Shown here: in pieces, positions 4,689-44,531 of the stretch
How positions within the stretch are numbered: the stretch's first letter is position 1
How the letters are laid out: each line of letters begins with the position of its first letter
Sequence record: NC_027349.1
Strand: one strand, 5' to 3'
DNA: 64,000 bases
Source of the DNA: Escherichia phage HY01
Notes under the pieces: generated by a model
The model's input: only the letters and a program-made list of their open reading frames with translations
Told to the model about the DNA's origin: nothing
Databases searched by the model: none
Translations under genes and position numbers: made by a program

Positions 4689-5369
4689 TTATTTTAATGT
4701 TACGAAAGAAGAGTTGCGTGTTTCACGAATTAGAACTGATCCGTCACGGTTAATGTAGTAAATTAAGCTAAATAAAGTTTGGTGTGCCGACGCGTGTTCA
4801 AAACTAGTTGGGTGAGATTTCCAATCCGGAGTTTCAGCAATCCACTGGTAAATCCACCAAGGAACAGTGCAGAATCCTGGATTTTTTCCAATCAGCTGAA
4901 GATTCGGACTAAAGTTTTCCGGAAGAGTAAATACAGACGGCTTTTCAGATTCAATAATCTCAGCTACGGCCTGCTCGAATTTTTCTTCAACAAAAGGAGT
5001 ATCTTCAATCAAAACATCGGTATTTTCAGGAATTTTATCCTTTTCTACTACTTCAATTTTAATGTCAGATTTAACCGGAGAATCAATCAGAAGTGCTGCT
5101 TCTGGATTGACTTCTTCATCGTCATATTTTAATCCTTCTGCAGCATCAGCAGCATTAATTAAGTCTTTAATAGATAACCCATCAGTCTCTGGCATAGGTT
5201 CACTAGCGAGCTTCTGGAGGGCTTCTTCAATATCAACAACGATATTATCAAAAGATTTATTCTTTTTGACCTTTATACCAAACTGTTCAGCATATTCAGC
5301 TAATTTAGCTTTAGCTTCTTTATTATCATCAAGAGCCTTCAGCTCTGCAATATAATCTTTATCTATCAT
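4689..5369 (-). CDS. inh: Inh, inhibitor of prohead protease gp21
   Basis: 226-aa ORF in the conserved position between hoc and uvsW. Confidence 0.75.
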   Translation of the reverse strand: MIDKDYIAELKALDDNKEAKAKLAEYAEQFGIKVKKNKSFDNIVVDIEEALQKLASEPMPETDGLSIKDLINAADAAEGLKYDDEEVNPEAALLIDSPVKSDIKIEVVEKDKIPENTDVLIEDTPFVEEKFEQAVAEIIESEKPSVFTLPENFSPNLQLIGKNPGFCTVPWWIYQWIAETPDWKSHPTSFEHASAHQTLFSLIYYINRDGSVLIRETRNSSFVTLK

Positions 5370-5382
5370 AATATTTCCTCAG

Positions 5383-5390
5383 TATAAATA
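5383..5390 (+). promoter_or_regulatory. Late promoter TATAAATA upstream of uvsW
   Basis: Exact TATAAATA 30 nt upstream of the uvsW ATG. Confidence 0.55.
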
Positions 5391-5419
5391 TAGATATATT
5401 TATTACATGGTATTTAGAC

Positions 5420-6931
5420 ATGACTGACATTAAAGTACATTTTTATGATTTTAGTCACGTGAGAATTGATTGTGAAGAAAGTACATTTCATGAACTCCGT
5501 GATTTCTTTAGCTTTGAAGCTGATGGGTATCGTTTTAATCCGAAGTACAAATATGGTCATTGGGATGGGCGAATCCGTCTTTTAGATTATAATCGACTTC
5601 TTCCATTCGGCTTAGTCGGGCAAATTAAAAAGTTCTGTGATAACTTTGGCTATAAAGCCTGGATTGACCCGCAGATTAACGAAAAAGAAGAATTATCAAG
5701 AAAAGATTTTGATGAATGGCTTTCTAAATTAGAAATCTATTCAGGAAATAAAAGAATTGAACCGCACTGGTATCAAAAAGATGCAGTGTTCGAAGGATTA
5801 GTTAATCGTCGTAGAATTCTTAATCTTCCAACATCCGCAGGTAAATCTTTAATTCAAGCTTTGCTTGCACGTTATTATTTGGAAAATTATGAAGGTAAAA
5901 TTCTTATCATTGTTCCAACAACTGCTCTGACAACTCAGATGGCTGATGACTTTGTTGACTATCGTTTATTCAGTCATGCAATGATAAAGAAAATCGGTGG
6001 TGGAGCATCAAAAGATGATAAATATAAAAATGATGCACCAGTAATTGTTGGTACATGGCAAACTGTAGTAAAACAACCAAAAGAATGGTTCTCGCAGTTT
6101 GGAATGATGATGAACGATGAATGCCATCTTGCCACAGGAAAAAGTATTTCATCTATCATATCAGGTTTAAATAACTGCATGTTCAAATTTGGTCTATCGG
6201 GTTCATTACGTGATGGCAAAGCTAATATCATGCAGTATGTTGGAATGTTTGGTGAAATATTTAAGCCAGTAACGACTTCTAAATTAATGGAAGATGGACA
6301 AGTAACTGAGTTAAAAATTAATAGTATTTTTCTTCGCTATCCTGATGAGTTCACTACTAAATTAAAGGGAAAAACTTACCAAGAAGAAATAAAAATTATT
6401 ACTGGGCTCAGTAAAAGAAATAAATGGATCGCTAAATTAGCTATTAAGCTTGCGCAAAAAGATGAAAACGCTTTTGTCATGTTTAAACATGTATCACATG
6501 GTAAAGCTATTTTCGATTTAATTAAAAATGAATACGATAAAGTTTATTACGTATCAGGGGAAGTTGATACCGAAACCCGCAATGTAATGAAAACCTTAGC
6601 TGAAAATGGTAAAGGAATAATTATAGTAGCTAGTTATGGTGTATTTTCTACTGGTATTTCAGTTAAAAATCTGCATCATGTTGTTTTAGCGCACGGTGTT
6701 AAATCTAAAATTATTGTATTGCAAACAATAGGTCGCGTATTACGTAAGCATGGTTCTAAAACAATCGCAACAGTCTGGGACCTCATAGATGATTGCGGTG
6801 TTAAGCCAAAATCTGCTAATACGAAAAAGAAATACGTTCATTTGAACTATCTTTTAAAACACGGCATTGATCGTATTCAGCGCTACGCAGATGAAAAATT
6901 TAATTACGTAATGAAAACAGTTAATTTATAA
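5420..6931 (+). CDS. uvsW: UvsW, SF2 DNA/RNA helicase for recombination and repair
   Basis: 503 aa; Walker A PTSAGKS and DECH box; near-identical to remembered T4 UvsW. Confidence 0.95.
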   Translation: MTDIKVHFYDFSHVRIDCEESTFHELRDFFSFEADGYRFNPKYKYGHWDGRIRLLDYNRLLPFGLVGQIKKFCDNFGYKAWIDPQINEKEELSRKDFDEWLSKLEIYSGNKRIEPHWYQKDAVFEGLVNRRRILNLPTSAGKSLIQALLARYYLENYEGKILIIVPTTALTTQMADDFVDYRLFSHAMIKKIGGGASKDDKYKNDAPVIVGTWQTVVKQPKEWFSQFGMMMNDECHLATGKSISSIISGLNNCMFKFGLSGSLRDGKANIMQYVGMFGEIFKPVTTSKLMEDGQVTELKINSIFLRYPDEFTTKLKGKTYQEEIKIITGLSKRNKWIAKLAIKLAQKDENAFVMFKHVSHGKAIFDLIKNEYDKVYYVSGEVDTETRNVMKTLAENGKGIIIVASYGVFSTGISVKNLHHVVLAHGVKSKIIVLQTIGRVLRKHGSKTIATVWDLIDDCGVKPKSANTKKKYVHLNYLLKHGIDRIQRYADEKFNYVMKTVNL

Positions 6932-31559: not shown

Positions 31560-33147
<1,588 letters not shown>

Positions 33148-33150
33148 AAT

Positions 33151-33169
33151 AAAATGGGCCTTGCGGCCC
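33151..33169 (-). terminator. Hairpin (GGGCC-TTGC-GGCCC) after nrdB
   Basis: Perfect 5-bp GC stem with a U-rich tract on the minus strand. Confidence 0.4.
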
Positions 33170-33174
33170 ACTCC

Positions 33175-34353
33175 TTAAAAATATTTTTTAAAACTCATCA
33201 TAACTTTATCATCAACATCATTATCAATCTGTGCTACAAGATAAGATGACAGTTCTACTTCTTGTGGCGCGGATTGAACATTATCAGAATTAAGGTATTC
33301 ACGAATCCAAGGATACGGGTGTTTAACCGGAGCATCGGTAATTGGGCATGGAAGACCACACTGTTTCATACGAGATACAGTTAAGTAATCAATAAAGCTC
33401 CACATGCTATTTGTATTTAATCCAGGAACATCGCCATCTTTAAATAAATGAACTGCCCAGTCTTTTTCTTGACGGTTAACTTCCATGAAAATATCAACTG
33501 CTTCTTGTTCACACTCTTGAGCAATTTTAACCCATTCATCACCGTCAGTGCCAAGTTGAAGTTGACGAATAATATATTGAGTGCCTTTAAGATGAAGTTG
33601 TTCATCACGTGCAATGAACTTCATAATCTTGGCATTACCTTCCATGATTTCCATGTTCTTATGGAAGTTAAAGGTACATGCGAAAGATACATAAAAACGA
33701 ATAGCTTCCAATGCATTGATTACATGGAGGCAAAGATAAAGAGATTTCATTAGTGCTCGTTTAGCTTCGGCTTCTTGTTTAATAGCTCGATTTAAACGAA
33801 AATCAGCATCAGGAGATTCTTTAGCTAGTTCTACAAATTCTTTAGCATTTTCCCATTCACGGGTCTTCTTAAGAACATCATCGTAATAGCGACCAATGGA
33901 CTCAGCGCGTTTCATAATATCTTCATCTAATACAATCTCATCAAATACCTTTGACGGATCAGTATAAAGATTTCGCATGATATGGGTATATGAACGGCTG
34001 TGAATAGTTTCACTAAAAGTCCATGTAGCAACCCACGTATCAAGGCTTGGGTCTGAAATTAACGACATAAGTACAGCAGACGGTGCACGACCCTGAATGC
34101 TATCCAAAAGTGATTGATACTTCAGGTTATTAGTAAAAATATCTTGCTGATACTGAGGAAGCTTGTTAAATTGTGCAGCATCCATCATTAAGTTTACTTC
34201 TTCAGGACGCCAGAAAAATGACAACTGCTTTTCGGTTAAATCTTCAAAAACTTTATGACGTTGAATATCATAACGCGCAATACCAAGACCTGATCCGAAG
34301 AACATAGGTTCTTTTAAAACATCAACTGGATTTGTATTAAAAACTGTGCTCAT
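33175..34353 (-). CDS. nrdB: Ribonucleotide reductase small subunit NrdB (uninterrupted, no intron)
   Basis: 392-aa continuous ORF MSTVFNTNPVDVL... with ATG start; no intervening sequence. Confidence 0.9.
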   Translation of the reverse strand: MSTVFNTNPVDVLKEPMFFGSGLGIARYDIQRHKVFEDLTEKQLSFFWRPEEVNLMMDAAQFNKLPQYQQDIFTNNLKYQSLLDSIQGRAPSAVLMSLISDPSLDTWVATWTFSETIHSRSYTHIMRNLYTDPSKVFDEIVLDEDIMKRAESIGRYYDDVLKKTREWENAKEFVELAKESPDADFRLNRAIKQEAEAKRALMKSLYLCLHVINALEAIRFYVSFACTFNFHKNMEIMEGNAKIMKFIARDEQLHLKGTQYIIRQLQLGTDGDEWVKIAQECEQEAVDIFMEVNRQEKDWAVHLFKDGDVPGLNTNSMWSFIDYLTVSRMKQCGLPCPITDAPVKHPYPWIREYLNSDNVQSAPQEVELSSYLVAQIDNDVDDKVMMSFKKYF

Positions 34354-34404
34354 AAATTTTCCGCTTAGTTAATAGATAGTGACTCGTCCGTGAGTCAAAT
34401 TATA

Positions 34405-35394
34405 TCATAATTTACAGGATGAACAATCTTCAGCTTTTGGAGTTTCTATTTCATAATCATCAGTACCAGAACCGTCGCGGGTATTATGATAATAGAAATT
34501 TTTTCCGCCAAAATACCAAAAGTACAAAAGGTCATCAATCATTACAGACATTGGAACCTTTCCTTTTGGAAAAATCTGCGGGTCATAATATGTATTCGCT
34601 GAAGCTGATTGACATACCCATTTCAGCATAATAGCTACCTGCGTAAGATAAGGTTTATTACCTTTCTTAGCTAATTTCCATGTATAATCATAGAGGTCTA
34701 TGTTATGTTCAATATTGGGCACGACTTGATTAAAGGAACCCTCTTTTGATTCTTTAACCGAGACTGGTCCACGTGGAGGCTCGATGCCGTTTGTACTGTT
34801 AGAAACTTGGGAAGATGACTCACATGGCATAAGTGCTGATAATGTGCTATTACGGATGCCAAAGAGCTTAAGGTCTTCCCGCAGCTCCGACCAGTCACAA
34901 ACGTATTTTGGAGCTGCGATTTGGTCAATCTTTTTATTGTACCAGTCGATAGGTAATTCGCCTCGAGACCAACGAGTGTCTGAATAATATTCGCAAGGTC
35001 CTTTTTCTTTGGCGAGCTTAATGGATGCTTTAATGAGCCCATACTGTAATCTCTCAAATAGTTCATGTGTTAAATCGTTAGCATCTTCATAAGAAGCAAA
35101 GTTACTTGCCAGCCAAGCTGCATAGTTAGTAACACCTACGCCAAGGTTTCGACGCTTTTTAGCTTTTTCTGCTTCAGGAACTGGATATCCTTGGTAATCC
35201 AAAAGATTATCAAGAGCGCGAACTTGAACTTCTGCCAATTCATTAATTTTATCTTGGTCTTGCCAATCGAAGTTATCTAGCACAAATGCAGAGAGAGTGC
35301 AGAGGCCCACTTCACCTTTGTTTTCAATAACTTGTATTGTTGTATACTCATCATCTTCGTAAAATTCATCTACAAATTCATAATCAATATTCAT
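34405..35394 (-). CDS. nrdA: Ribonucleotide reductase large subunit, C-terminal fragment (NrdA-b)
   Basis: 329-aa ORF with its own ATG; after a ~25-aa non-conserved lead, aligns to class Ia NrdA from GEVGLCTLSAF to the C-terminal CSSCKL. Confidence 0.85.
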   Translation of the reverse strand: MNIDYEFVDEFYEDDEYTTIQVIENKGEVGLCTLSAFVLDNFDWQDQDKINELAEVQVRALDNLLDYQGYPVPEAEKAKKRRNLGVGVTNYAAWLASNFASYEDANDLTHELFERLQYGLIKASIKLAKEKGPCEYYSDTRWSRGELPIDWYNKKIDQIAAPKYVCDWSELREDLKLFGIRNSTLSALMPCESSSQVSNSTNGIEPPRGPVSVKESKEGSFNQVVPNIEHNIDLYDYTWKLAKKGNKPYLTQVAIMLKWVCQSASANTYYDPQIFPKGKVPMSVMIDDLLYFWYFGGKNFYYHNTRDGSGTDDYEIETPKAEDCSSCKL

Positions 35395-36094
35395 TTAATT
35401 CTTCTACCTTTTTTCGAGATATTCCTAGAGCTTTAGATGCTCGATGTATTGATTGATATTCTATACCGTTTATTTTTACAGCAATTAAGTTATGGGGTTT
35501 TAATCCCTTTGGATGAGGTTTACTGACGTATTCTTGATTATCGTTTTCAGAGATATTATCAAGCTTTCGACACTTAAAGCCTTTATGTTGAGACCTTTTG
35601 CCTTTGCATACGGCCGACATTGCCGAAGCATTGAGTGAATGTAGTTCGCAAAATTCTCTTAGGCCTTTATGGATTTCTTCATGACCGTCCGGGAAAGTAA
35701 ATACCCAAGTTGTTTGAAGTTTTTCTCTATGCTCGTCAGTTACCGGAATACCTTTGTTCCAAGCTGGTTTGCCTTTATTATTTTCAGATACAGAAATAGC
35801 CAATTTTCTTCTAAGCCACCCATGGCGTTTATTGGTGTTCTTTCGTTCAATATTATCTTCAGAATAAACACACATCATATTAGCGGCAAATACCAATTTA
35901 TGATTATCTGGATATATCTTTACTAATAATTGATGAGCTATGTAATGCTCTTCGGGTGTCAAATCTACCAGGTTTTCCTTTGTATCAGAACCACCAATAC
36001 ACAGAGGTATAATATGGTGTGATTCGGTATAGCAATCTAATTTTCTGTTCTTAGCTTTAGAAATAAGGTTATTGTAAATTTTAGAATAATCCAT
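35384..36094 (-). CDS. HNH homing endonuclease (MobE-like) inserted within nrdA
   Basis: 236 aa; HNH motif ESHHIIPLCIGGSDTKENLVDLTPEEHYIAH; GAGGA Shine-Dalgarno; stop overlaps the NrdA-b start by 11 nt. Confidence 0.85.
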   Translation of the reverse strand: MDYSKIYNNLISKAKNRKLDCYTESHHIIPLCIGGSDTKENLVDLTPEEHYIAHQLLVKIYPDNHKLVFAANMMCVYSEDNIERKNTNKRHGWLRRKLAISVSENNKGKPAWNKGIPVTDEHREKLQTTWVFTFPDGHEEIHKGLREFCELHSLNASAMSAVCKGKRSQHKGFKCRKLDNISENDNQEYVSKPHPKGLKPHNLIAVKINGIEYQSIHRASKALGISRKKVEELNEY

Positions 36095-36139
36095 AACTTT
36101 TCCTCTTGTTATGGATTATTTATTAACGGTCTGTGTACT

Positions 36140-37573
36140 TTATTTGCTTTGAATTATACCGCCAGGATTAGCTTCATAAAACTTAGCTACATCCGACTTC
36201 TTAATTTTGATTAAACGGGTTTGTTGGCTATTCACATCATTTGTTGGAATAGCAATTTCACAGCACAAATTACTCTGACGAATAGGTGCTTTTTCACGAA
36301 TAAACGGAGTATAGTTATTCGTATTATCAATGAACTGCACATAAATCCTTGCTGTTCCTGATCGTTCAGTCATGAGTAGTTCAAACAGTTCACGTGCTTT
36401 AATACGCTTTTTACGAATATTAGGGTCTTTTTCTGCGGCTTCGTATAATTCACGGAAACGGTCTTGGTCTTTAAAATAAGAATAATAAAGCTCGCCACCC
36501 ATTTCATGCGGACTGAACAAAGTAATGTAGTCGTTCTTTCCAAAACGTTCCATCATCAAATCATTCAGCTGGACGCCATAATCCATATGACGGATACGGT
36601 TTTCTTCTACGCCTTTGTTATTTTTCAAAACGAGAAGATTTTCAACTTCCAAATGCCAAATAGGATAATAAGCAGTAGCAGCGCCGCCACGAATTCCGCC
36701 CTGTGAACACGATTTAACAGCAGTCTGAAAATGTTTCCAAAAAGGAATAACACCAGTATGACGCACTTCACCTGTGCCAATCTTAGAACCTTCGGCACGA
36801 ATCATACCAACGTTAATACCAATTCCAGCGCGTTTGGAGATATATTCAACAATTGAAGCAGAAGCCTTATTGATAGACTTCAGCGAATCACCTGCCTCAA
36901 TAACAACACATGAACTAAACTGCCGAGTTGGAGTACGACAACCAGCCATAATAGGAGTTGGCAATGAAATCTGTCGAGTAGATACTGCTTCATAAAAACG
37001 AATAACATGTTTTAATCTATCAACAGGTTCATCTTGATGCAATGCCATTCCAATAGTCATAAATGCAAACTGTGGAGTTTCATAAATTTGACCGGTGGTT
37101 TTATCTTTAACTAGATATTTTTCTTTTAATTGCATCGCCCCGGAATAAGTAAATTCCATATCCCGCTCGTGCTTAATTTTTGATTCTAAAAATGTAATTT
37201 CTTCTGCTGAATATTTTGACAACAGTTCAGGGTCGTATTTACCTTCATTTACACAGTAAGAAATATGGTCAATAAATGAACGTGGTTCATACTGACCGTA
37301 AACATGCTTACGAAGAGCGAACATTAAACAGCGCGCAGCTACGTATTGATAATCAGGCTCTTCAACTGAAATAGAATTCGCAGCAGCCTTAATTACAATA
37401 GTTTGAATGTCATCAGTGGTCATTCCATCACGGAGATATGATTTAATATTTTCATATAATTCATAAGGATCTACAGATGTTCCTTCAGCTGCCCAAGATA
37501 AAACTTTAATAATTTTTTGCGGGTCAAAGCTTTGAGAAACACCACTACTTTTGATAACATTAATTAATTGCAT
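36140..37573 (-). CDS. nrdA: Ribonucleotide reductase large subunit, N-terminal fragment (NrdA-a)
   Basis: 477-aa ORF; aligns to NrdA through the active-site loop SNLCCEIAIPTNDVNS, then ~28 aa of unrelated tail before the stop. Confidence 0.85.
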   Translation of the reverse strand: MQLINVIKSSGVSQSFDPQKIIKVLSWAAEGTSVDPYELYENIKSYLRDGMTTDDIQTIVIKAAANSISVEEPDYQYVAARCLMFALRKHVYGQYEPRSFIDHISYCVNEGKYDPELLSKYSAEEITFLESKIKHERDMEFTYSGAMQLKEKYLVKDKTTGQIYETPQFAFMTIGMALHQDEPVDRLKHVIRFYEAVSTRQISLPTPIMAGCRTPTRQFSSCVVIEAGDSLKSINKASASIVEYISKRAGIGINVGMIRAEGSKIGTGEVRHTGVIPFWKHFQTAVKSCSQGGIRGGAATAYYPIWHLEVENLLVLKNNKGVEENRIRHMDYGVQLNDLMMERFGKNDYITLFSPHEMGGELYYSYFKDQDRFRELYEAAEKDPNIRKKRIKARELFELLMTERSGTARIYVQFIDNTNNYTPFIREKAPIRQSNLCCEIAIPTNDVNSQQTRLIKIKKSDVAKFYEANPGGIIQSK

Positions 37574-37890
37574 AAGTCCTCAACTTGAAAATCGTCTTTA
37601 AACAATCGGTTAACTATATGAGCTATTATATCACCATGACACGGCTTTGGTTTACATGTGCATCCTAGCCTCATTCCACGTAAAGGTTCTAAATGTGCTT
37701 TAGTTATTTCTCCGGATTTAATTCGACGTATAAAATCTTTTTTGAATAATTCAATGGCAGCCTCCCGGCTGCCAGCATCTTTACCGACGTAATTTCCCCA
37801 AAATGTACCACGGTGAATATTAACATCAAAGTCGGATTTATATTTATTCACTACTTGGCATAGACGGCCCGCGCGGTGATAATTCGTCAT
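37564..37890 (-). CDS. Hypothetical protein (nrdA.1 position)
   Basis: 108-aa ORF. Confidence 0.6.
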
Positions 37891-38107
37891 ATTGTTTTTC
37901 CGTTAAAACAGTAATATCATAATAACAATCTGAAGAAGTTTTAACCGTAGAAATTTTATTATCAAAATACTCACGAGTCATTTTATGAGTATAATATTTT
38001 TTGCCATAAATTATAATAGGCTGATTTGGTCCTGGAACTTCTAACTCGCTTGGGTTAGGAAGTGTAAAAAGAACTACACCAGAAGTATCTTTAAATCGTA
38101 AAATCAT
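37844..38107 (-). CDS. Hypothetical protein (nrdA.2 position)
   Basis: 87-aa ORF. Confidence 0.55.
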
Positions 38108-38130
38108 ATATCCTCACAATTAATAATTAA

Positions 38131-38991
38131 TTACACCGCCATTTTTCCTTTAATAGGAGGGTGAGATACATAGTTGTTAAGAACAAAATTATGCGGCTTT
38201 GCGAATTGACTCAACCAAAATACCTGTGATTCTGTGTCCCATTCATCAAATTCATCTGGAAATTTTAATTGTAATTCGCATAAATCCATAGGTTCACGAC
38301 GTAAAATTTCTTTACATTGTTCTACGTGATTCATATAGATATGAGTATTACCACCAGAAAATATCAAATCTCCTGGAATAAGATTACACATCTTAGCTAC
38401 AATATGAACTAATGCAGCATATGATGCAATGTTGAATGGCAAGCCCAAGAACACGTCAACACTTCTTTGATACCACTGCAAATCCAAATAGCCATTACGC
38501 ACATTAAACTGATAGAACATATGACAAGGCGGTAATGCCATATATTTAAGTTCAGCTGGATTCCATGCAGAAACAATTTGACGCCTATCATTCGGCAGTT
38601 TTTTAATACGATCAATAACTTCTATAATTTGGTCTACACCGCCAAAATCACGCCATTGTTTTCCATAAATTGGACCAAGTTCACCACTATGATATCCTAA
38701 ATCTTTTGCTTGATTTTCGTAATTTTCATCCCAGACTGTTTTGCCTTGAATTAATGAATCATGTTGAATTAATCGTAAATCATTGACATTTGTGCTTCCC
38801 GATAAAAACCATATTAGCTCAGCAATGCAAGCTTTCCAGGCGAGCTTCTTAGTTGTTACTGCAGGAAAACCTTTAGTTAAATCCCAGCGTAATTTAGTAC
38901 CGAACAAAGCAATTGTTCCTGTGCCCGTTCGGTCATCGGTTTCATAGCCATTTTCAAAAATGTCTTTAATTAAATCTTGGTATTGTTTCAT
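38131..38991 (-). CDS. td: Thymidylate synthase (uninterrupted, no intron)
   Basis: 286-aa continuous ORF with catalytic PCH motif (ALPPCHMFYQF); no intron. Confidence 0.95.
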   Translation of the reverse strand: MKQYQDLIKDIFENGYETDDRTGTGTIALFGTKLRWDLTKGFPAVTTKKLAWKACIAELIWFLSGSTNVNDLRLIQHDSLIQGKTVWDENYENQAKDLGYHSGELGPIYGKQWRDFGGVDQIIEVIDRIKKLPNDRRQIVSAWNPAELKYMALPPCHMFYQFNVRNGYLDLQWYQRSVDVFLGLPFNIASYAALVHIVAKMCNLIPGDLIFSGGNTHIYMNHVEQCKEILRREPMDLCELQLKFPDEFDEWDTESQVFWLSQFAKPHNFVLNNYVSHPPIKGKMAV

Positions 38992-39036
38992 TTAGTACCT
39001 TATATAAATTATAATACATTTTATGAAGCTAAATAA

Positions 39037-39384
39037 TCAATACGGTTTAGCATCAAATTTTCTTTCAATTTCAGGCGTGAAATATAATTCTTTACCACGC
39101 TTGGAAAAGCGACCAATAATATGATAATTATTCTCATCAAACGTGATATTGCCAATATCCATAGCTTTCAACCAAATATCGATATTTCTATCCAGTTTTA
39201 TATCAAAATTCCAATACGGAGAACTATTACCGAAAATACTGCAAGCGGATTCAGTGAAACAACTGCTATAAATCTTGTCTTTAGGAACTACTAATTGATA
39301 GACGCCTTTAATAAACTGAGGACCCTGCCATTTTGGCTGTTTCGCGCCTTTTTCTAATAGAATAGGGTAATAATTAAAGTTCAT
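39037..39384 (-). CDS. Hypothetical protein inserted between frd and td
   Basis: 115-aa ORF with ATG start and no recognisable motif; occupies a junction that is a 4-nt ATGA overlap in T4 as I recall it. Confidence 0.55.
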   Translation of the reverse strand: MNFNYYPILLEKGAKQPKWQGPQFIKGVYQLVVPKDKIYSSCFTESACSIFGNSSPYWNFDIKLDRNIDIWLKAMDIGNITFDENNYHIIGRFSKRGKELYFTPEIERKFDAKPY

Positions 39385-39404
39385 ATTTTCTGCCGCGCGT
39401 TATT

Positions 39405-39992
<588 letters not shown>

Positions 39993-40247
39993 TCAAAACC
40001 CCCTTTCAATAAACCATTCAGTGGCTTTATTAGCATCAAAGAATAATTCTTCATATGTCTTTTCTTTGTTTTCAAAAACTGTCACACAAACACGTTGACA
40101 GTCTCCGCAGTATTCTTCTGACATGCTCAAAGCGTCAGAAAACATTTCATTAAATTCATTTAAATCAGGATTATGTAATGCATTAAAAATTGCATAATCG
40201 AATTCATCATTCATAAATTCAAATACAAAAATCATATTACCTCCCAC
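39993..40247 (-). CDS. Hypothetical protein (frd.1 position)
   Basis: 84-aa ORF. Confidence 0.55.
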   Translation of the reverse strand: MGGNMIFVFEFMNDEFDYAIFNALHNPDLNEFNEMFSDALSMSEEYCGDCQRVCVTVFENKEKTYEELFFDANKATEWFIERGF

Positions 40248-40591
40248 TGAAAAGGGTCAGAAGCATATCCGCTAGCTTTAATCATTTTAACTAAAGTTAC
40301 CATGCCTTTGTTAACTGCTTGCGCAATTTCATTAAAAACTTCATCACTATCATCGTAAAGGTCATTAAAAAGTTCTAACACGTTCTTCTGAACTTTTAAT
40401 TTACGGCCGACAATTTCGCCTACAGTAAATTCGTTTCCGCCAAATCCAGCGTAAAATGTAATTACACCCATTAACTGGCTTTCGCGAGAATCTATGTCAT
40501 GTGATAAATTAATAAAAGCCGTCCCAGGCGCGGTTTTAAGTCGACAACGAATTCTTACTTGGATAATTCCAGTTATATGAATGTCAGACAT
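40232..40591 (-). CDS. Hypothetical protein (frd.2 position)
   Basis: 119-aa ORF. Confidence 0.55.
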   Translation of the reverse strand: MSDIHITGIIQVRIRCRLKTAPGTAFINLSHDIDSRESQLMGVITFYAGFGGNEFTVGEIVGRKLKVQKNVLELFNDLYDDSDEVFNEIAQAVNKGMVTLVKMIKASGYASDPFQWEVI

Positions 40592-40601
40592 AATATTTTC
40601 C

Positions 40602-40844
40602 TCAAACAGACTTTTTCACAATTTTCCAATCAGCTTTAAACTGTTCAACGTCAGAATGATAAATCCAAAATCCTGCGCTTTCTCCATCCTCATAAAGAGG
40701 GCATCCATCGCATTCATCTTCCCATCCCATATCACGTAAAAGATGTTCAGCTTTTTCAACAAGTTCAGAATCTTTACCAATGATATTAAAATACCATTTA
40801 CCTCTAACTTCTGAATCTTTAATGCTCTGGCGTTGTAATCTCAT
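40602..40844 (-). CDS. Hypothetical protein (frd.3 position)
   Basis: 80-aa ORF with Shine-Dalgarno, downstream of an early promoter. Confidence 0.55.
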   Translation of the reverse strand: MRLQRQSIKDSEVRGKWYFNIIGKDSELVEKAEHLLRDMGWEDECDGCPLYEDGESAGFWIYHSDVEQFKADWKIVKKSV

Positions 40845-40869
40845 TTTATTCTCCTTAGTTGATAGGGTA

Positions 40870-40899
40870 ATAGTATCACACTACTACCCTGTTGTAAAC
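40870..40899 (-). promoter_or_regulatory. T4-type early promoter (GTTTAC-N18-TACTAT)
   Basis: Member of the conserved GATAGGGTAA...GTAAAC cassette family. Confidence 0.45.
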
Positions 40900-41300
40900 T
40901 ACTTTTTGAAAGTTTTTCGCAAAAGTTCAATGATTTCATCTACATTGTTTTCGTCTACAATGCAGTGAATTTTTGTTACGCCAGAAATCTTGTCTTCGAC
41001 TTCATCTTCTTCAGAAGTCGGTTCTTTATACTCGCGGAAACAATAAAACTCTTCTTCACTAAGTTCAAAATAATCATCACCCATGCCATCATCATTATAG
41101 ATTTCGCCATTAGCACAAATGATTTCAGTTACATAATCAAAGCCATCTAAATTTGATATTGATTTAACTTCAAACCAACCACCATTTTCTTGAATGATGC
41201 CGACCATATTAGCATTTGATGAACTAATATCAATGAAAGATTTAATACGATGTGGATTTAACTCATATTTTTTGCCGATTTCCATTTTGATTTTCCTCAT
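40899..41300 (-). CDS. Hypothetical acidic protein
   Basis: 133-aa ORF with GAGGA Shine-Dalgarno; Asp/Glu-rich C-terminal half. Confidence 0.55.
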   Translation of the reverse strand: MRKIKMEIGKKYELNPHRIKSFIDISSSNANMVGIIQENGGWFEVKSISNLDGFDYVTEIICANGEIYNDDGMGDDYFELSEEEFYCFREYKEPTSEEDEVEDKISGVTKIHCIVDENNVDEIIELLRKTFKK

Positions 41301-41330
41301 TTTGATAGGGGCTTGATAGCCCCTTAATAA

Positions 41331-41558
41331 TTATTGTTCAATCAGTCCCATGTAAAATTCTACATCTTCAGAATCCATACCATCACAATATTCATTAGCC
41401 ATAAAGCGGGTGAGGTCTTCAAGAGGGCCTTCAATAACGATTTGAATACTCCAAAACTTAGAATCTTGCACGCTTGTGATACTAAGTTCAGGATAATGAT
41501 TACGAATAATTTCTTCAATATATTCAAAATCAACGATGTCAATATCAACTTTAGCCAT
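41331..41558 (-). CDS. Hypothetical acidic small protein
   Basis: Start moved to ATG at 41558 (AGAGGAAAA Shine-Dalgarno), 75 aa; strongly acidic. Confidence 0.5.
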
Positions 41559-41601
41559 ATTGTTTTCCTCTTTAATCATCAGCAGTATTGCCGATAGTTG
41601 T

Positions 41602-41631
41602 ATAGTACCATAGTCCTTGTGGTATGTAAAC
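41602..41631 (-). promoter_or_regulatory. T4-type early promoter (GTTTAC-N18-TACTAT)
   Basis: Cassette nearly identical to those at 58292-58321 and 61936-61965. Confidence 0.5.
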
Positions 41632-41650
41632 TGTTTTGTGAAAAAATTTT

Positions 41651-41680
41651 AAAATAAAAAAGGGGACCTCTAGGGTCCCC
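41651..41680 (-). terminator. Rho-independent terminator after gene 32 (GGGGACC-CTAGA-GGTCCCC)
   Basis: 7-bp GC-rich stem followed on the minus strand by TTTTTTATTTT. Confidence 0.6.
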
Positions 41681-41702
41681 AATTAATTAGTAATATAATC
41701 TA

Positions 41703-42611
41703 TTAAAGGTCATTCAAAAGGTCATCCAGGTCCGTGTCATCAGCACTAGATGAACTGCCAGAGCTTGAGCTCATAAAATCATCTTCAGTTTTTGTTTTGA
41801 AGTCATCAACATTAAATGCATCCAAATCATCAGCAACTTTATCGGCTTTCTTAGCGGCAGTTGCTGCGGCACCACCCATAGCAGCAGTTCCCATAACTTG
41901 ACTGAACTTAGTGCTCAGTTCTTCAAACGATTTGAATTTATCTTTAGAAGTCATTTCAGAAAGGTCAACCATTTGTTCGAACAGTTCTTTCTGGAAAGAT
42001 TCATCATCAATGTTTGGAATCGCAGATTGATTCAGGAATTTAGATTCGTCGTAGTTACTAAAACCAGAAACTTGTTTAACTTTCAGTACAAAGTTAGCAC
42101 CTTCCCACGGACAAGTTACATCAACCGGAGTTTCACCCATTTCAACATCAACTGCAATCATTGCATTGATTTTATCCCAGATTTTCTTACCGAAACGGTA
42201 TTTAAATACTTTACCTTCATTTTCTGGAGCAGCTGGGTCTTTTACTACAAGAATGTTAGCCCAGTAAGAAGTTTTACGTTTAACAAGACCGTACTCTTTA
42301 TTGTCAGTATTATACAAATCATTTTTACTGATGTACTGACATACTGGGCAAGAATCGTAATCACCGTAGGTAGATGAGCATGTTTCGATATACCATTTAC
42401 CATTTTTCTTGAAACCGTGATTTACAAGAAGTGCGAATGGTGCTTGTTCATCATTTTTAGACGGAAGAAAACGAATTACTGCTTGACCGTTACCCGCATT
42501 ATCGAGTTTCAGTTTCCACTCGCCTTTATCTTCAGAAGAAAAACCACCTTTATTTCCAGCCAGTTTAGCCATTTGTGCAGCGAGTTCAGCAGTAGATTTA
42601 CGTTTAAACAT
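41703..42611 (-). CDS. 32: Single-stranded DNA-binding protein gp32
   Basis: 302 aa; zinc-site region [14 protein letters not shown]; acidic C-terminal tail; matches remembered T4 gp32. Confidence 0.95.
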
Positions 42612-42661
42612 TTTTATTTCCTTTTTAATTTAATTAACAGTTGGTGCTATGACACTTTACC

Positions 42662-43294
42662 TCATAGCTGGCATAATTCACAATACTCTGGGTCTTCGAG
42701 AGGTATCCAACCTGAGTTGAAATACTTTACCATCGATTTAGCAGTTGTATCAGTTATATTTATATTACCTTTAACTCTTCGCCATCCAGGAGTTTTACCG
42801 TACAGATTAGAGGATAATAATAACACATAATTCTCGTAAGCAATATGAGATAATTTCCAAGACTCTATATTAGCTCGTGATGTTTTCCAAGGTCTAAAAT
42901 CGTCACGGTTCATATAATTAGCCAATCTCATATGCTCTCTAACTTCCGGGTCTTTGGCTGGATGAGTTTCACCACTCACACCAAATCCGCCGCCAGCATA
43001 TACCAGATTAAAATAGTCTGGATTATCTCTGGCATTTACTTCAAGTTGGTATTTTCGCTCTGCTTCAATAACATCCAAATCATCATCAATTTGAATTATT
43101 TTAACGCTCGGTTTTTGAAGCATTACCGCATTTAAAAATCTTTTTTGTTTACACGAACTCCAGTATTCCTTTCCGGAAGAGTCATATATTATTCCATTCT
43201 CAAATGAGCAATTTAATTTACTGCCGATATAGTAGTACGGCGGAGTCTTATTTTTGACACGGTCTTCAAATGTAAACCAATATACTATATTCAT
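42662..43294 (-). CDS. GIY-YIG homing endonuclease (SegG-like) between genes 32 and 59
   Basis: 210 aa; N-terminal IVY...YYYIGS GIY-YIG-type motif; occupies the T4 segG position. Confidence 0.65.
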   Translation of the reverse strand: MNIVYWFTFEDRVKNKTPPYYYIGSKLNCSFENGIIYDSSGKEYWSSCKQKRFLNAVMLQKPSVKIIQIDDDLDVIEAERKYQLEVNARDNPDYFNLVYAGGGFGVSGETHPAKDPEVREHMRLANYMNRDDFRPWKTSRANIESWKLSHIAYENYVLLLSSNLYGKTPGWRRVKGNINITDTTAKSMVKYFNSGWIPLEDPEYCELCQL

Positions 43295-43295
43295 A

Positions 43296-43949
43296 TTAAT
43301 ACTTACAGGATTTCACAGTTTCAATGAAAACACTTTTAGCTTTCTGTGAATCAATATTTAAAATTTTTCTATAAGCTTTTAACTTTATAGAATAATTATT
43401 CCAGACTAAATTATCAGTCTGTTCATCATGTTTATCAATTATATTTAAAAACGAATCAAGCAAGATAAACGTCTCAAACGAAATTATATTCGATTGAAGT
43501 AGTTTAAAAATATAACTTGATTGAACTTTTGGATTATACTCAAAGATTTCTTTAAAAGCAGAAACTTCAACTTTTTTACTAAAATAATAAATGTTGCGAA
43601 TATCTTCTTCAAACTTAAATTTAATTTGCTTTAAGCGTCCGATATATTCACGATAAAACACAAGTGCATCAGCGTCAGAGATGTCACCAATCCAAGCATC
43701 TTGGTTAGCAACAAGATTGCTTATAAAGATTAAAGCAAGTTCCTTTAATTTATATTTTTCTGATAACTTCTGGAAAAAATACTTATCCCTTCGCTTTTGA
43801 TAAGCGGCATCAGACACCCGCATGCACCAATTATACTTAATTACATCATACTTTCCATTCATATGTTGTTTTATCATTAAGTATAATTTATAAACTGATT
43901 TACCATCAATGTATCTTTCACCACCAGCAGGCATGCGGAGTTTAATCAT
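43296..43949 (-). CDS. 59: gp59 helicase loader
   Basis: 217 aa as in T4; conserved position. Confidence 0.85.
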   Translation of the reverse strand: MIKLRMPAGGERYIDGKSVYKLYLMIKQHMNGKYDVIKYNWCMRVSDAAYQKRRDKYFFQKLSEKYKLKELALIFISNLVANQDAWIGDISDADALVFYREYIGRLKQIKFKFEEDIRNIYYFSKKVEVSAFKEIFEYNPKVQSSYIFKLLQSNIISFETFILLDSFLNIIDKHDEQTDNLVWNNYSIKLKAYRKILNIDSQKAKSVFIETVKSCKY

Positions 43950-44284
43950 AGTAGAAAATCTAATGTATTAGTTTTTTCACAACGAACAACAGAAGGACGT
44001 AAAAGATTTTCGTCAATAGCTTCTGACTGAATTTTTTCAATTATACCCGAAGGAATAAATTTAGCAAATTGAGTTTCAGGAATAGAATTTTCTTCTAAGA
44101 ATGCTGTTGTAGCTTCAAGATAACTCATTCCAAACTCTTCTACCATTTTTTCAATGATAAATCCATTTTCTTGACGATCAAGAAGCTTTGCAATTTCATC
44201 CTTTTCTTTCTTAATTGAAAGTTCTTTTTCTGAAAGACCGGTCTCATCGACCGGACGAATATCATTTAGAGAAAACTGTGTCAT
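43946..44284 (-). CDS. 33: gp33 late-transcription co-activator
   Basis: Track start is TTG; ATG at 44284 gives 112 aa starting MTQFSLNDIRPVDETGL, as T4 gp33. Confidence 0.85.
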   Translation of the reverse strand: MTQFSLNDIRPVDETGLSEKELSIKKEKDEIAKLLDRQENGFIIEKMVEEFGMSYLEATTAFLEENSIPETQFAKFIPSGIIEKIQSEAIDENLLRPSVVRCEKTNTLDFLL

Positions 44285-44531
44285 AAAGTTCAACTACCTC
44301 TTCGGTTTCAGCTTCAAACACATCACGGTTATCTTTATGATACAAAGCTAACAGACGATTAAACATCTTTCCATCAACACCAAGTTCATCTTTGGCGCGA
44401 ATTCGAATATCTTTAATCAATTCATTATAACCAGAAATTTTCAGTTTATGATCAGATGCTTCTTTGATAAATTTAGCTAAGTCTTCGCCATGGATAGCTT
44501 CATCAAATTCAACCATTTCTTTTTTAGCCAT
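44262..44531 (-). CDS. dsbA: DsbA double-stranded DNA-binding protein
   Basis: 89 aa in the conserved position between rnh and 33. Confidence 0.75.
   Translation of the reverse strand: MAKKEMVEFDEAIHGEDLAKFIKEASDHKLKISGYNELIKDIRIRAKDELGVDGKMFNRLLALYHKDNRDVFEAETEEVVELYDTVFSK

Follow-up and report, generated by a model that had tools for sequence, protein, structure and literature searches.

The nrdA gene of Escherichia phage HY01 (sequence record NC_027349.1), which encodes the large subunit of ribonucleotide reductase (RNR), is present as two separate genes with a 912-bp cassette between them (35314-36225). We consider it highly probable that this cassette is a homing unit built around an endonuclease of the MobE family, that it splits nrdA in the manner of Aeromonas phage Aeh1, and that the peptides it adds to the two gene products, here called tails, let the pieces assemble. 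All positions refer to the window, the stretch of 64,000 nucleotides of this genome that was analysed, and all genes at issue lie on its minus strand except uvsW, which lies on the plus strand. Between 33000 and 44000 the window matches Escherichia phage PEC04 (KR233165.1; Tequatrovirus hy01) at 100% identity. The region is the nrd-td-frd-32-59 cluster of a T4-like coliphage that differs from T4 in the homing-endonuclease elements it carries; the T4 reference map of the same stretch was the standard of comparison, and overall td, nrdB and nrdA are about 96-97% identical to those of T4.

Anatomy of the split nrdA gene

A first-pass annotation of this DNA had placed a mobile HNH gene inside nrdA, where T4 has none. 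This was borne out: the gene at 35384-36094 lies between two nrdA open reading frames (ORFs) that jointly cover T4 NrdA. The upstream piece, nrdA-a (36140-37573, 477 aa), runs from the ATP-cone through the all-alpha domain into the barrel, of which it encodes the first half with the active-site cysteine of NLCCEIAIP (Pfam matches PF03477, PF00317 and positions 1-221 of PF02867), and is near-identical to T4 NrdA as far as ...PTNDVNS. The downstream piece, nrdA-b (34405-35394, 329 aa), carries the GLCTLSAF cysteine and the C-terminal CxxC, matches positions 219-523 of PF02867 and aligns with T4 NrdA from E..GLCTL on. What the first-pass annotation had missed is that the insertion has the known layout of the Aeh1 MobE 'genes-in-pieces' arrangement, and that the slot of T4 mobE and nrdB.1 is empty here, nrdA-b and nrdB being separated by a spacer of 51 bp (34354-34404).

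The cassette boundaries were set by alignment with T4. From 5' to 3' in the direction of transcription the cassette consists of the a-tail, a 45-nt spacer, mobE and the b-tail, and its T4 counterpart is 7 nt that it replaces (CTGATGC, codons P-D-A). Across the split T4 NrdA reads ...NLCCEIAIPTNDVNS-PDAE-IGLCTLSAF..., and the window reads NLCCEIAIPTNDVNS (ending NDVNS), then the cassette, then EVGLCTLSAF, with the break between the codons equivalent to Cys439 and Cys462. The a-tail (36143-36226) comprises 28 codons, QQTRLIKIKKSDVAKFYEANPGGIIQSK, at the C-terminus of NrdA-a, followed by a stop codon; it has a net charge of +4, is absent from uninterrupted NrdA such as that of T4, and is nucleotide-identical in six phages. 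The b-tail (35314-35394) comprises 27 codons, MNIDYEFVDEFYEDDEYTTIQVIENKG (Met plus 26 aa), at the N-terminus of NrdA-b, has a net charge of -8, and is likewise missing from T4 NrdA.

The end of the b-tail (35314-35340; ..TIQVIENKGEV) also aligns with a native loop of uninterrupted NrdA from other genera at 63-76% identity, in tblastn matches starting at query residues 19-22, so part of this 'tail' may originate from the nrdA of an earlier host. The query of that tblastn search was the N-terminal 45 aa of NrdA-b; its acidic tail was hidden by the low-complexity filter, and the output was dominated by uninterrupted nrdA.

The endonuclease gene and its control region

The gene within the cassette is a mobE-like HNH homing endonuclease gene (35384-36094) of 236 aa, which overlaps the start of nrdA-b by 11 nt. 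Its product is 46% identical to T4 MobE over the N-terminal 127 aa, the catalytic half (E = 5e-32), and 48% identical to Aeh1 MobE over 229 aa (E = 3e-61), and it matches the PHROG family phrog_655, homing endonuclease (E = 2.8e-60). An intact HH...N...H motif (SHHIIP...GGSD..ENLV.L...EH) aligns residue for residue with T4 MobE; a Pfam I-HmuI NUMOD-like domain scores above its cutoff and marks a NUMOD-like or I-TevI-like DNA-binding region that the 141-aa T4 MobE lacks. With both the HNH motif and the DNA-binding domain present, the enzyme looks intact. The ORF of segG, the other homing endonuclease gene of the region, is likewise intact.

The 45-nt spacer and the mobE start can be folded into an RNA hairpin (36085-36120) with a 13-bp stem, in which the loop holds the mobE Shine-Dalgarno sequence AAGAGGAAAA and the 3' arm holds the mobE AUG. 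The fold of 36070-36170 has a free energy of -19.2 kcal/mol (z = -3.9), and one of 200 shuffled sequences was equally stable. A late-promoter-like box, TAATAAATA, lies at 36117-36125 and overlaps the 5' arm. Hairpin and late-promoter control of this kind has its model in T4 endonuclease genes and in Aeh1 mobE. By analogy, the hairpin probably holds down early translation of mobE by hiding its ribosome-binding site (RBS) and AUG: on early transcripts reading through from upstream both would be buried and mobE would be silent, and late transcripts starting within the 5' arm would have the RBS free.

Likeness to Aeh1 and to other interrupted genes

The arrangement in the window was compared with the genes-in-pieces RNR of Aeh1 (Friedrich et al. 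2007, as cited in Crona et al. 2010, PMC3045599). The order in Aeh1 is nrdA-A, a gap of 46 nt and a 237-aa mobE overlapping nrdA-B; the order in the window is the same, with a gap of 45 nt. Both genes are split at the same point, between the Cys439- and Cys462-equivalent residues, which in Aeh1 parts these two cysteines (E. coli numbering) between two adjacent strands of the active-site barrel (PMC3045599). Moreover, the tails of the two phages align, one sharing L-x-K-[IV]-KKS-[DE]-V-x-KF and the other YED-x-EYTT. In local alignments against composition-preserving shuffles, the similarity of the a-tails was equalled by 1 of 20000 and that of the b-tails by 0 of 20000, and in both phages the two tails carry opposite net charges (window/Aeh1: +4/+6 for the a-tail, -8/-9 for the b-tail). 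In Aeh1 the mature proteins contain the tail peptides, as found by mass spectrometry, the split holoenzyme is fully active, and deletion of the tails lowers the activity about 2000-fold; when used as database queries at the time of that study the Aeh1 tails gave no matches (PMC3045599).

The two systems also differ. Aeh1 is a Cinqassovirus of Aeromonas, whereas the window belongs to a Tequatrovirus of E. coli; identity between the tails is only about 40-45%, the nrd operon of Aeh1 occupies another genome location, and the hairpin hiding the mobE RBS has an unlike sequence. Unlike that of Aeh1, the copy in the window is one of a near-identical population in Tequatrovirus and Mosigvirus. Judged by its sequence, the cassette in nrdA is a further case of the Aeh1-type genes-in-pieces RNR, an arrangement that was already known. 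To this the present analysis adds, from alignments, the homology of its tails with the Aeh1 tails and the presence of near-identical copies in two genera of coliphages. Our literature search found no paper describing the coliphage copies of the cassette, and a 2022 preprint mentions, as an unpublished observation, "Aeh1 and several others" with MobE in nrdA and conserved terminal extensions. When IMG/VR was searched for the b-tail motif YED[D/E]EYTT, written as a degenerate DNA pattern, three matches resulted, Aeh1 and two unrelated proteins, and no new lineage.

Three other systems offer partial parallels. T4 MobE, a free-standing HNH endonuclease encoded between nrdA and nrdB (Wilson and Edgell 2009, PMC2790892), belongs to the same HNH family and the same RNR-gene neighbourhood as the cassette enzyme, which by this analogy is expected to nick or cut a nearby conserved RNR sequence and to spread by gene conversion. 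However, T4 MobE is 141 aa long, is intergenic and has the 5' end of nrdB as its target, whereas the cassette MobE is 236 aa long, sits within nrdA and carries tail-coding DNA along. In the gene 39/60 topoisomerase of T4, an essential enzyme, the MobA element, also a Mob-family HNH endonuclease, splits the catalytic site and leaves terminal extensions (bioRxiv 10.1101/2022.08.31.505936); there the target gene is another one, and the nrdA cassette is without a translational bypass element. The same layout of half-gene, endonuclease and half-gene is found in 'fractured genes', nrdA being among their targets (Dassa et al. 2009, PMC2677866). These contain split inteins by which the halves are ligated, whereas the window has peptides of 27-28 aa without intein motifs, and its halves would stay separate.

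Spread and recent transfer of the cassette

The insert is found at the same nrdA site in 33 phage records, in which one group of cassettes is at least 99% identical to that of the window and another about 91%. The evidence for mobility comes from comparison of genomes rather than from a cross. The window cassette is identical to that of Mosigvirus AV111 at 911 of 912 positions and to that of Mosigvirus ZQ3 at 910 of 912, whereas the nrdA flanks are only 78-79% identical. The block of identity with AV111 and ZQ3 runs from 36241 to 35303, so that no more than some 16 and 11 nt of nrdA travelled along with the cassette on its two sides. A cassette about 99.9% identical between flanks of about 78% indicates that it passed between genera recently. 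The fPS-90 group shows the reverse pattern, with nrdA flanks at 96-98% and the cassette at 91% identity, and here the differences cluster in MobE's C-terminal half. The a-tail does not change at all between the coliphage clades, and the b-tail shows three silent changes and one conservative replacement (Q/K). Near-identical cassettes in divergent flanks, together with tails that hardly vary, favour a recent transfer of the tail-mobE-tail unit as a whole and speak against pseudogenes.

Nearly all the divergence between the two coliphage cassette clades lies in the C-terminal half of mobE (about 35480-35765), where as many as 17 of 50 nt differ, the catalytic half of MobE and both tails being near-identical, and the cassette of phage F2 is a recombinant of the two clade types. 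The concentration of divergence in the linker and DNA-binding half, together with the F2 recombinant, suggests domain shuffling in this part of the enzyme. In the record of Escherichia phage UFV-AREG1 (NC_031030.2, 136991-139941) one N and a duplicated nrdA stretch were seen, with an uninterrupted T4-like junction (...AATAGTCCTGATGCTGAAATTGGA...) followed by a cassette-bearing junction, which suggests a mixed lysate of cassette-plus and cassette-minus phages or a misassembly.

Directly 3' of the cassette, a recoded patch of nrdA (35264-35313) differs from T4 at 12 of 51 positions with a single amino-acid change (I to V). The binomial probability of such a cluster against the background of the gene is about 2e-6, and on the 5' side of the cassette only 1 of 48 positions differs. 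The patch is 85-97% identical even among phages that share cassettes at least 99% identical, and some cassette-free phages have a similar one. This patch is likely the target region of MobE or a scar of co-conversion.

Proposed mechanism and alternatives

In the mechanism that we propose, on the model of what was shown for the homologous cassette of Aeh1, the HNH enzyme would attack an nrdA gene that lacks the cassette, nicking or cutting it close to the codons that separate the two active-site cysteines, presumably around the NDVNSPDAEIGLCTL codons. Repair from a co-infecting genome bearing the cassette would then copy in the whole unit, and nrdA would end as two genes, with neither RNA splicing nor protein splicing. 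The basic tail of NrdA-a and the acidic tail of NrdA-b would let both polypeptides form an active (a/b)2 large subunit, and by this tail-mediated assembly the insertion would be nearly neutral for the phage.

Several points weigh against this mechanism. What it says of RNR activity, tail function and cleavage by MobE derives from Aeh1, and the MobE of that phage shares only 48% identity. In Pfam, the HNH match stays under its curated cutoff (17.9 vs 21.4 bits), and the late-promoter-like box reads AATAAATA, one base off the T4 late consensus TATAAATA. The recoded 50 bp beside the cassette would fit immunity of the target site, a co-conversion scar or plain recombination alike. In addition, no group I intron match was obtained in an Rfam scan of 32500-44500 with E up to 1, and this negative is uninformative: a stricter control at the gathering threshold missed the introns of T4 td and nrdB. 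The scan was therefore set aside, and the absence of introns from td and nrdB rests on colinearity with the spliced T4 genes.

Two other readings of the insertion were weighed. The HNH insertion might simply have broken nrdA, leaving decaying pseudogene halves and a phage that lives on the host reductase or on the anaerobic one (nrdD). The aerobic RNR of T4 is not strictly essential in the laboratory, and the interruption does fall midway through the active-site barrel, with a catalytic cysteine on either side. However, both pieces are full-length ORFs close to T4 NrdA outside the tails, with no frameshift or stop; the split persists in 33 records, two cassette clades and two genera; the tails are conserved as protein out to Aeh1, and the few changes between the coliphage clades are silent in all cases but one. 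The halves being intact and conserved, and the split enzyme of Aeh1 being fully active (PMC3045599), we regard a broken gene as improbable.

Removal of the insertion by splicing, either as a group I intron that contains an HNH ORF, such as T4 nrdB has, or as a split or mini intein, is slightly less probable still and in our view very unlikely. The flanks of about 130 and 70 nt outside mobE are roughly what small phage introns hold as ribozyme outside their ORF, the Rfam negative is untrustworthy, and split inteins in 'fractured genes' around free-standing endonucleases, nrdA included, do exist (PMC2677866); but these flanks are in frame with the nrdA pieces and conserved between the window and Aeh1 as protein and not as nucleotide sequence, the non-coding part is only 45 nt, and the mature proteins of Aeh1 still hold their tail peptides. 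The group I intron was rejected as unlikely on account of these coding, protein-conserved flanks. The intein was rejected too, since a Hint fold needs far more than the 28 and 27 aa of the tails, no intein domain is found by Pfam, and the junctions Ser|Gln (S|QQTR) and Gly|Glu (NKG|EV) have neither the Cys/Ser start nor the His-Asn end nor the Cys/Ser/Thr +1 residue of inteins. A MobE homing unit with tails that reassemble the enzyme remains our preferred account of the cassette.

Elements shared with T4 and elements absent

The first-pass annotation had described the region as a rearranged landscape of homing endonucleases, with all its coordinates correct. The part of this that stands is that the set of elements differs from that of T4. 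Without counterpart here are segE, the nrdB intron (I-TevIII), the T4-type mobE with nrdB.1, and the td intron (I-TevI); segG is common to the window and T4; and the 912-bp MobE-family cassette within nrdA is the element beyond the T4 set. The lack of the introns and of segE, with segG retained, is normal presence/absence variation among T-even phages, and these presences and absences are plain facts and not statistical signals.

The part that does not stand concerns the endonuclease gene between genes 32 and 59. As claimed, a free-standing homing endonuclease gene is present there (segG, 42662-43294; a 633-bp ORF of 210 aa), but it had been taken for a relocated element. Its product is identical to T4 SegG (gene 32.1) at 209 of 210 aa, with equal length, the same flanking genes and essentially no difference between the two, and it matches phrog_7504, homing endonuclease (E = 1.9e-133). 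Since this is T4 SegG at the T4 locus, nothing has moved, and relocation was rejected. A Pfam scan of SegG with E up to 0.01 returned no family, and the GIY-YIG label derives from the RefSeq note on T4. In the GenBank annotation of PEC04 segG is shortened to a 462-bp coding sequence (CDS), although the 633-bp ORF is intact. T4 SegG causes marker exclusion. That the two resident endonucleases could drive marker exclusion in mixed infections, as the first-pass annotation had supposed, is accordingly plausible for SegG, and the nrdA MobE might plausibly act likewise.

Another absence noted at the outset, that of an endonuclease gene between inh (4689-5369) and uvsW (5420-6931), was also found to be correct: the spacer (5370-5419) is 50 bp long and holds no ORF, and T4 has segE there. 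A TATAAATA box lies in the spacer at 5383-5390.

Intron-less td and nrdB and the divergent patches at known or likely target sites

Short, highly divergent and mostly silent patches occur at each known or likely endonuclease target, namely in nrdA (described above), td, nrdB and uvsW. In uvsW, the patch at the 5' end (5426-5520) differs from T4 at 23 of 95 nt, almost all of them silent, and adjoins the empty segE slot.

The first-pass annotation was right that td and nrdB are intron-less here, and comparison with T4 around the insertion sites found no cryptic intron sequence in either gene. The td gene (38131-38991) is a single ORF of 286 aa whose 861 nt equal the length of spliced T4 td; it is colinear with the latter, with no added sequence at the insertion site (after CDS nt 549; 38443|38442). 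The nrdB gene (33175-34353) is a single ORF of 392 aa, colinear with spliced T4 nrdB across the equivalent of the T4 insertion site (33678|33677).

The two alleles had been regarded as potential targets for intron-encoded endonucleases of co-infecting relatives. For nrdB this is plausible, as its site is near-identical to the T4 exon junction: from -18 to +60 it differs only at -5 (T to C) and -2 (G to A), both silent, and no difference from T4 follows for about 70 nt downstream of the insertion site. The positions -14/-16, at which I-TevIII cuts (PMC1865063), are unchanged from T4, and an active I-TevIII, for instance the RB3 enzyme, could plausibly attack the site. Elsewhere in nrdB two divergent patches were observed. 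The first (34204-34323, CDS nt 31-150; 31 of 120 nt) lies just upstream of the tryptophan codon of FFWRPEE, in the region in which T4 MobE nicks T2 nrdB (PMC2790892); the second lies at 33697-33873 (CDS nt ~481-657).

For td, the same claim is uncertain. A recoded patch (38413-38466, CDS nt 526-579), with 17 substitutions relative to spliced T4 td and one amino-acid change, spans the cleavage and binding region of I-TevI; the background is about 3%, and none of 20000 permutations matched the cluster. I-TevI recognises 5'-CNNNG-3' at -27 to -23 from the insertion, C1 and G5 being critical, and is tolerant of substitutions, yet many CNNNG variants are poor substrates (PMC5009752). In the window the T4 motif CAACG has become CAAAG (CDS nt 523-527), with the critical C1 and G5 kept, and from -8 to +12 around the insertion site 6 of 20 positions differ from T4, as read from the alignment. 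With the C and the G kept but 6 of 20 positions changed, and with an enzyme that is tolerant yet fails on many variants, the susceptibility of td is uncertain. The recoded allele occurs in about 32 phage records, and among the matches listed no intron-less td allele was at least 95% identical to the full 96-nt T4 junction.

One reading of these data is that td has been naturally recoded into a site that resists I-TevI or is poorly cleaved by it, while nrdB has stayed a good I-TevIII site. The clustering of 17 mostly silent substitutions, the six changes at -8 to +12, the many CNNNG variants that are poorly cut (PMC5009752) and the diversity of intron-less alleles around the site, none of those listed reaching 95% identity to the T4 junction, speak for resistance of td, and the restriction of the nrdB differences to -5 and -2 speaks for the second half of the proposal. 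On the other hand, C1 and G5 are retained at the right distance in CAAAG, I-TevI is notably tolerant of substitutions (PMC5009752), and a short patch acquired from a divergent td donor would look alike because this stretch of the protein is nearly invariant. We therefore hold the reading as tentative, with the odds somewhat against it.

A separate stretch nearer the 3' end of td (38182-38301, CDS nt 691-810) shows 69 differences from T4 in 120 nt, among them many that alter the protein (REPKELCELVISGLPYKFRYL... vs REPMDLCELQLKFPDEFDEWD...), and lies between flanks of about 97% identity. It looks like a mosaic segment from another td lineage.

Other genes of the region

In the order of the cluster, denA (32737-33171) comes first. 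Its product is a GIY-YIG protein encoded just downstream of nrdB, and it is endonuclease II and not a homing endonuclease, with the length and position of T4 denA. After nrdB and the split nrdA, nrdA.1 and nrdA.2 lie between the N-terminal nrdA piece and td, and an extra ORF, then frd, then small ORFs lie between td and gene 32 (41703-42611), which is followed by segG and gene 59 (43296-43949). The extra ORF between td and frd (39037-39384, 115 aa, phrog_1928) is absent from the T4 map, in which td and frd overlap. Two ORFs of 84 and 119 aa between frd and frd.1 (39993-40247, phrog_3183; 40232-40591, phrog_3566) are not in the T4 map either.

Significance

Beyond the single insertion, we think it rather more probable than its opposite that the 912-bp unit is a self-contained 'split-and-complement' element, which would home to the same nrdA codons in at least three Straboviridae genera (Cinqassovirus, Tequatrovirus and Mosigvirus), bring its own two oppositely charged reassembly peptides and be spreading now among coliphages, and that the silent clusters at nrdA, td, nrdB and uvsW record a contest between endonucleases and their targets. 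If this is true, the element would add to introns and inteins a third strategy by which an endonuclease can reside in an essential gene, and the PEC04-type copy would be a test system tractable in E. coli.

The dozens of coliphage genomes annotated with two "nrdA" genes should, on this account, be read as having one functional split gene and not a pseudogene. The split reductase of Aeh1, long held to be a lone curiosity, is extended to a family whose tails move with the endonuclease, and this joint movement supports the tails as part of the mobile element and not as an accident of one insertion. The near-identical copies in Tequatrovirus and Mosigvirus amount to a natural experiment on homing across genera, and they would offer an E. 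coli system for studying both tail-mediated enzyme assembly and the choice of target by MobE.

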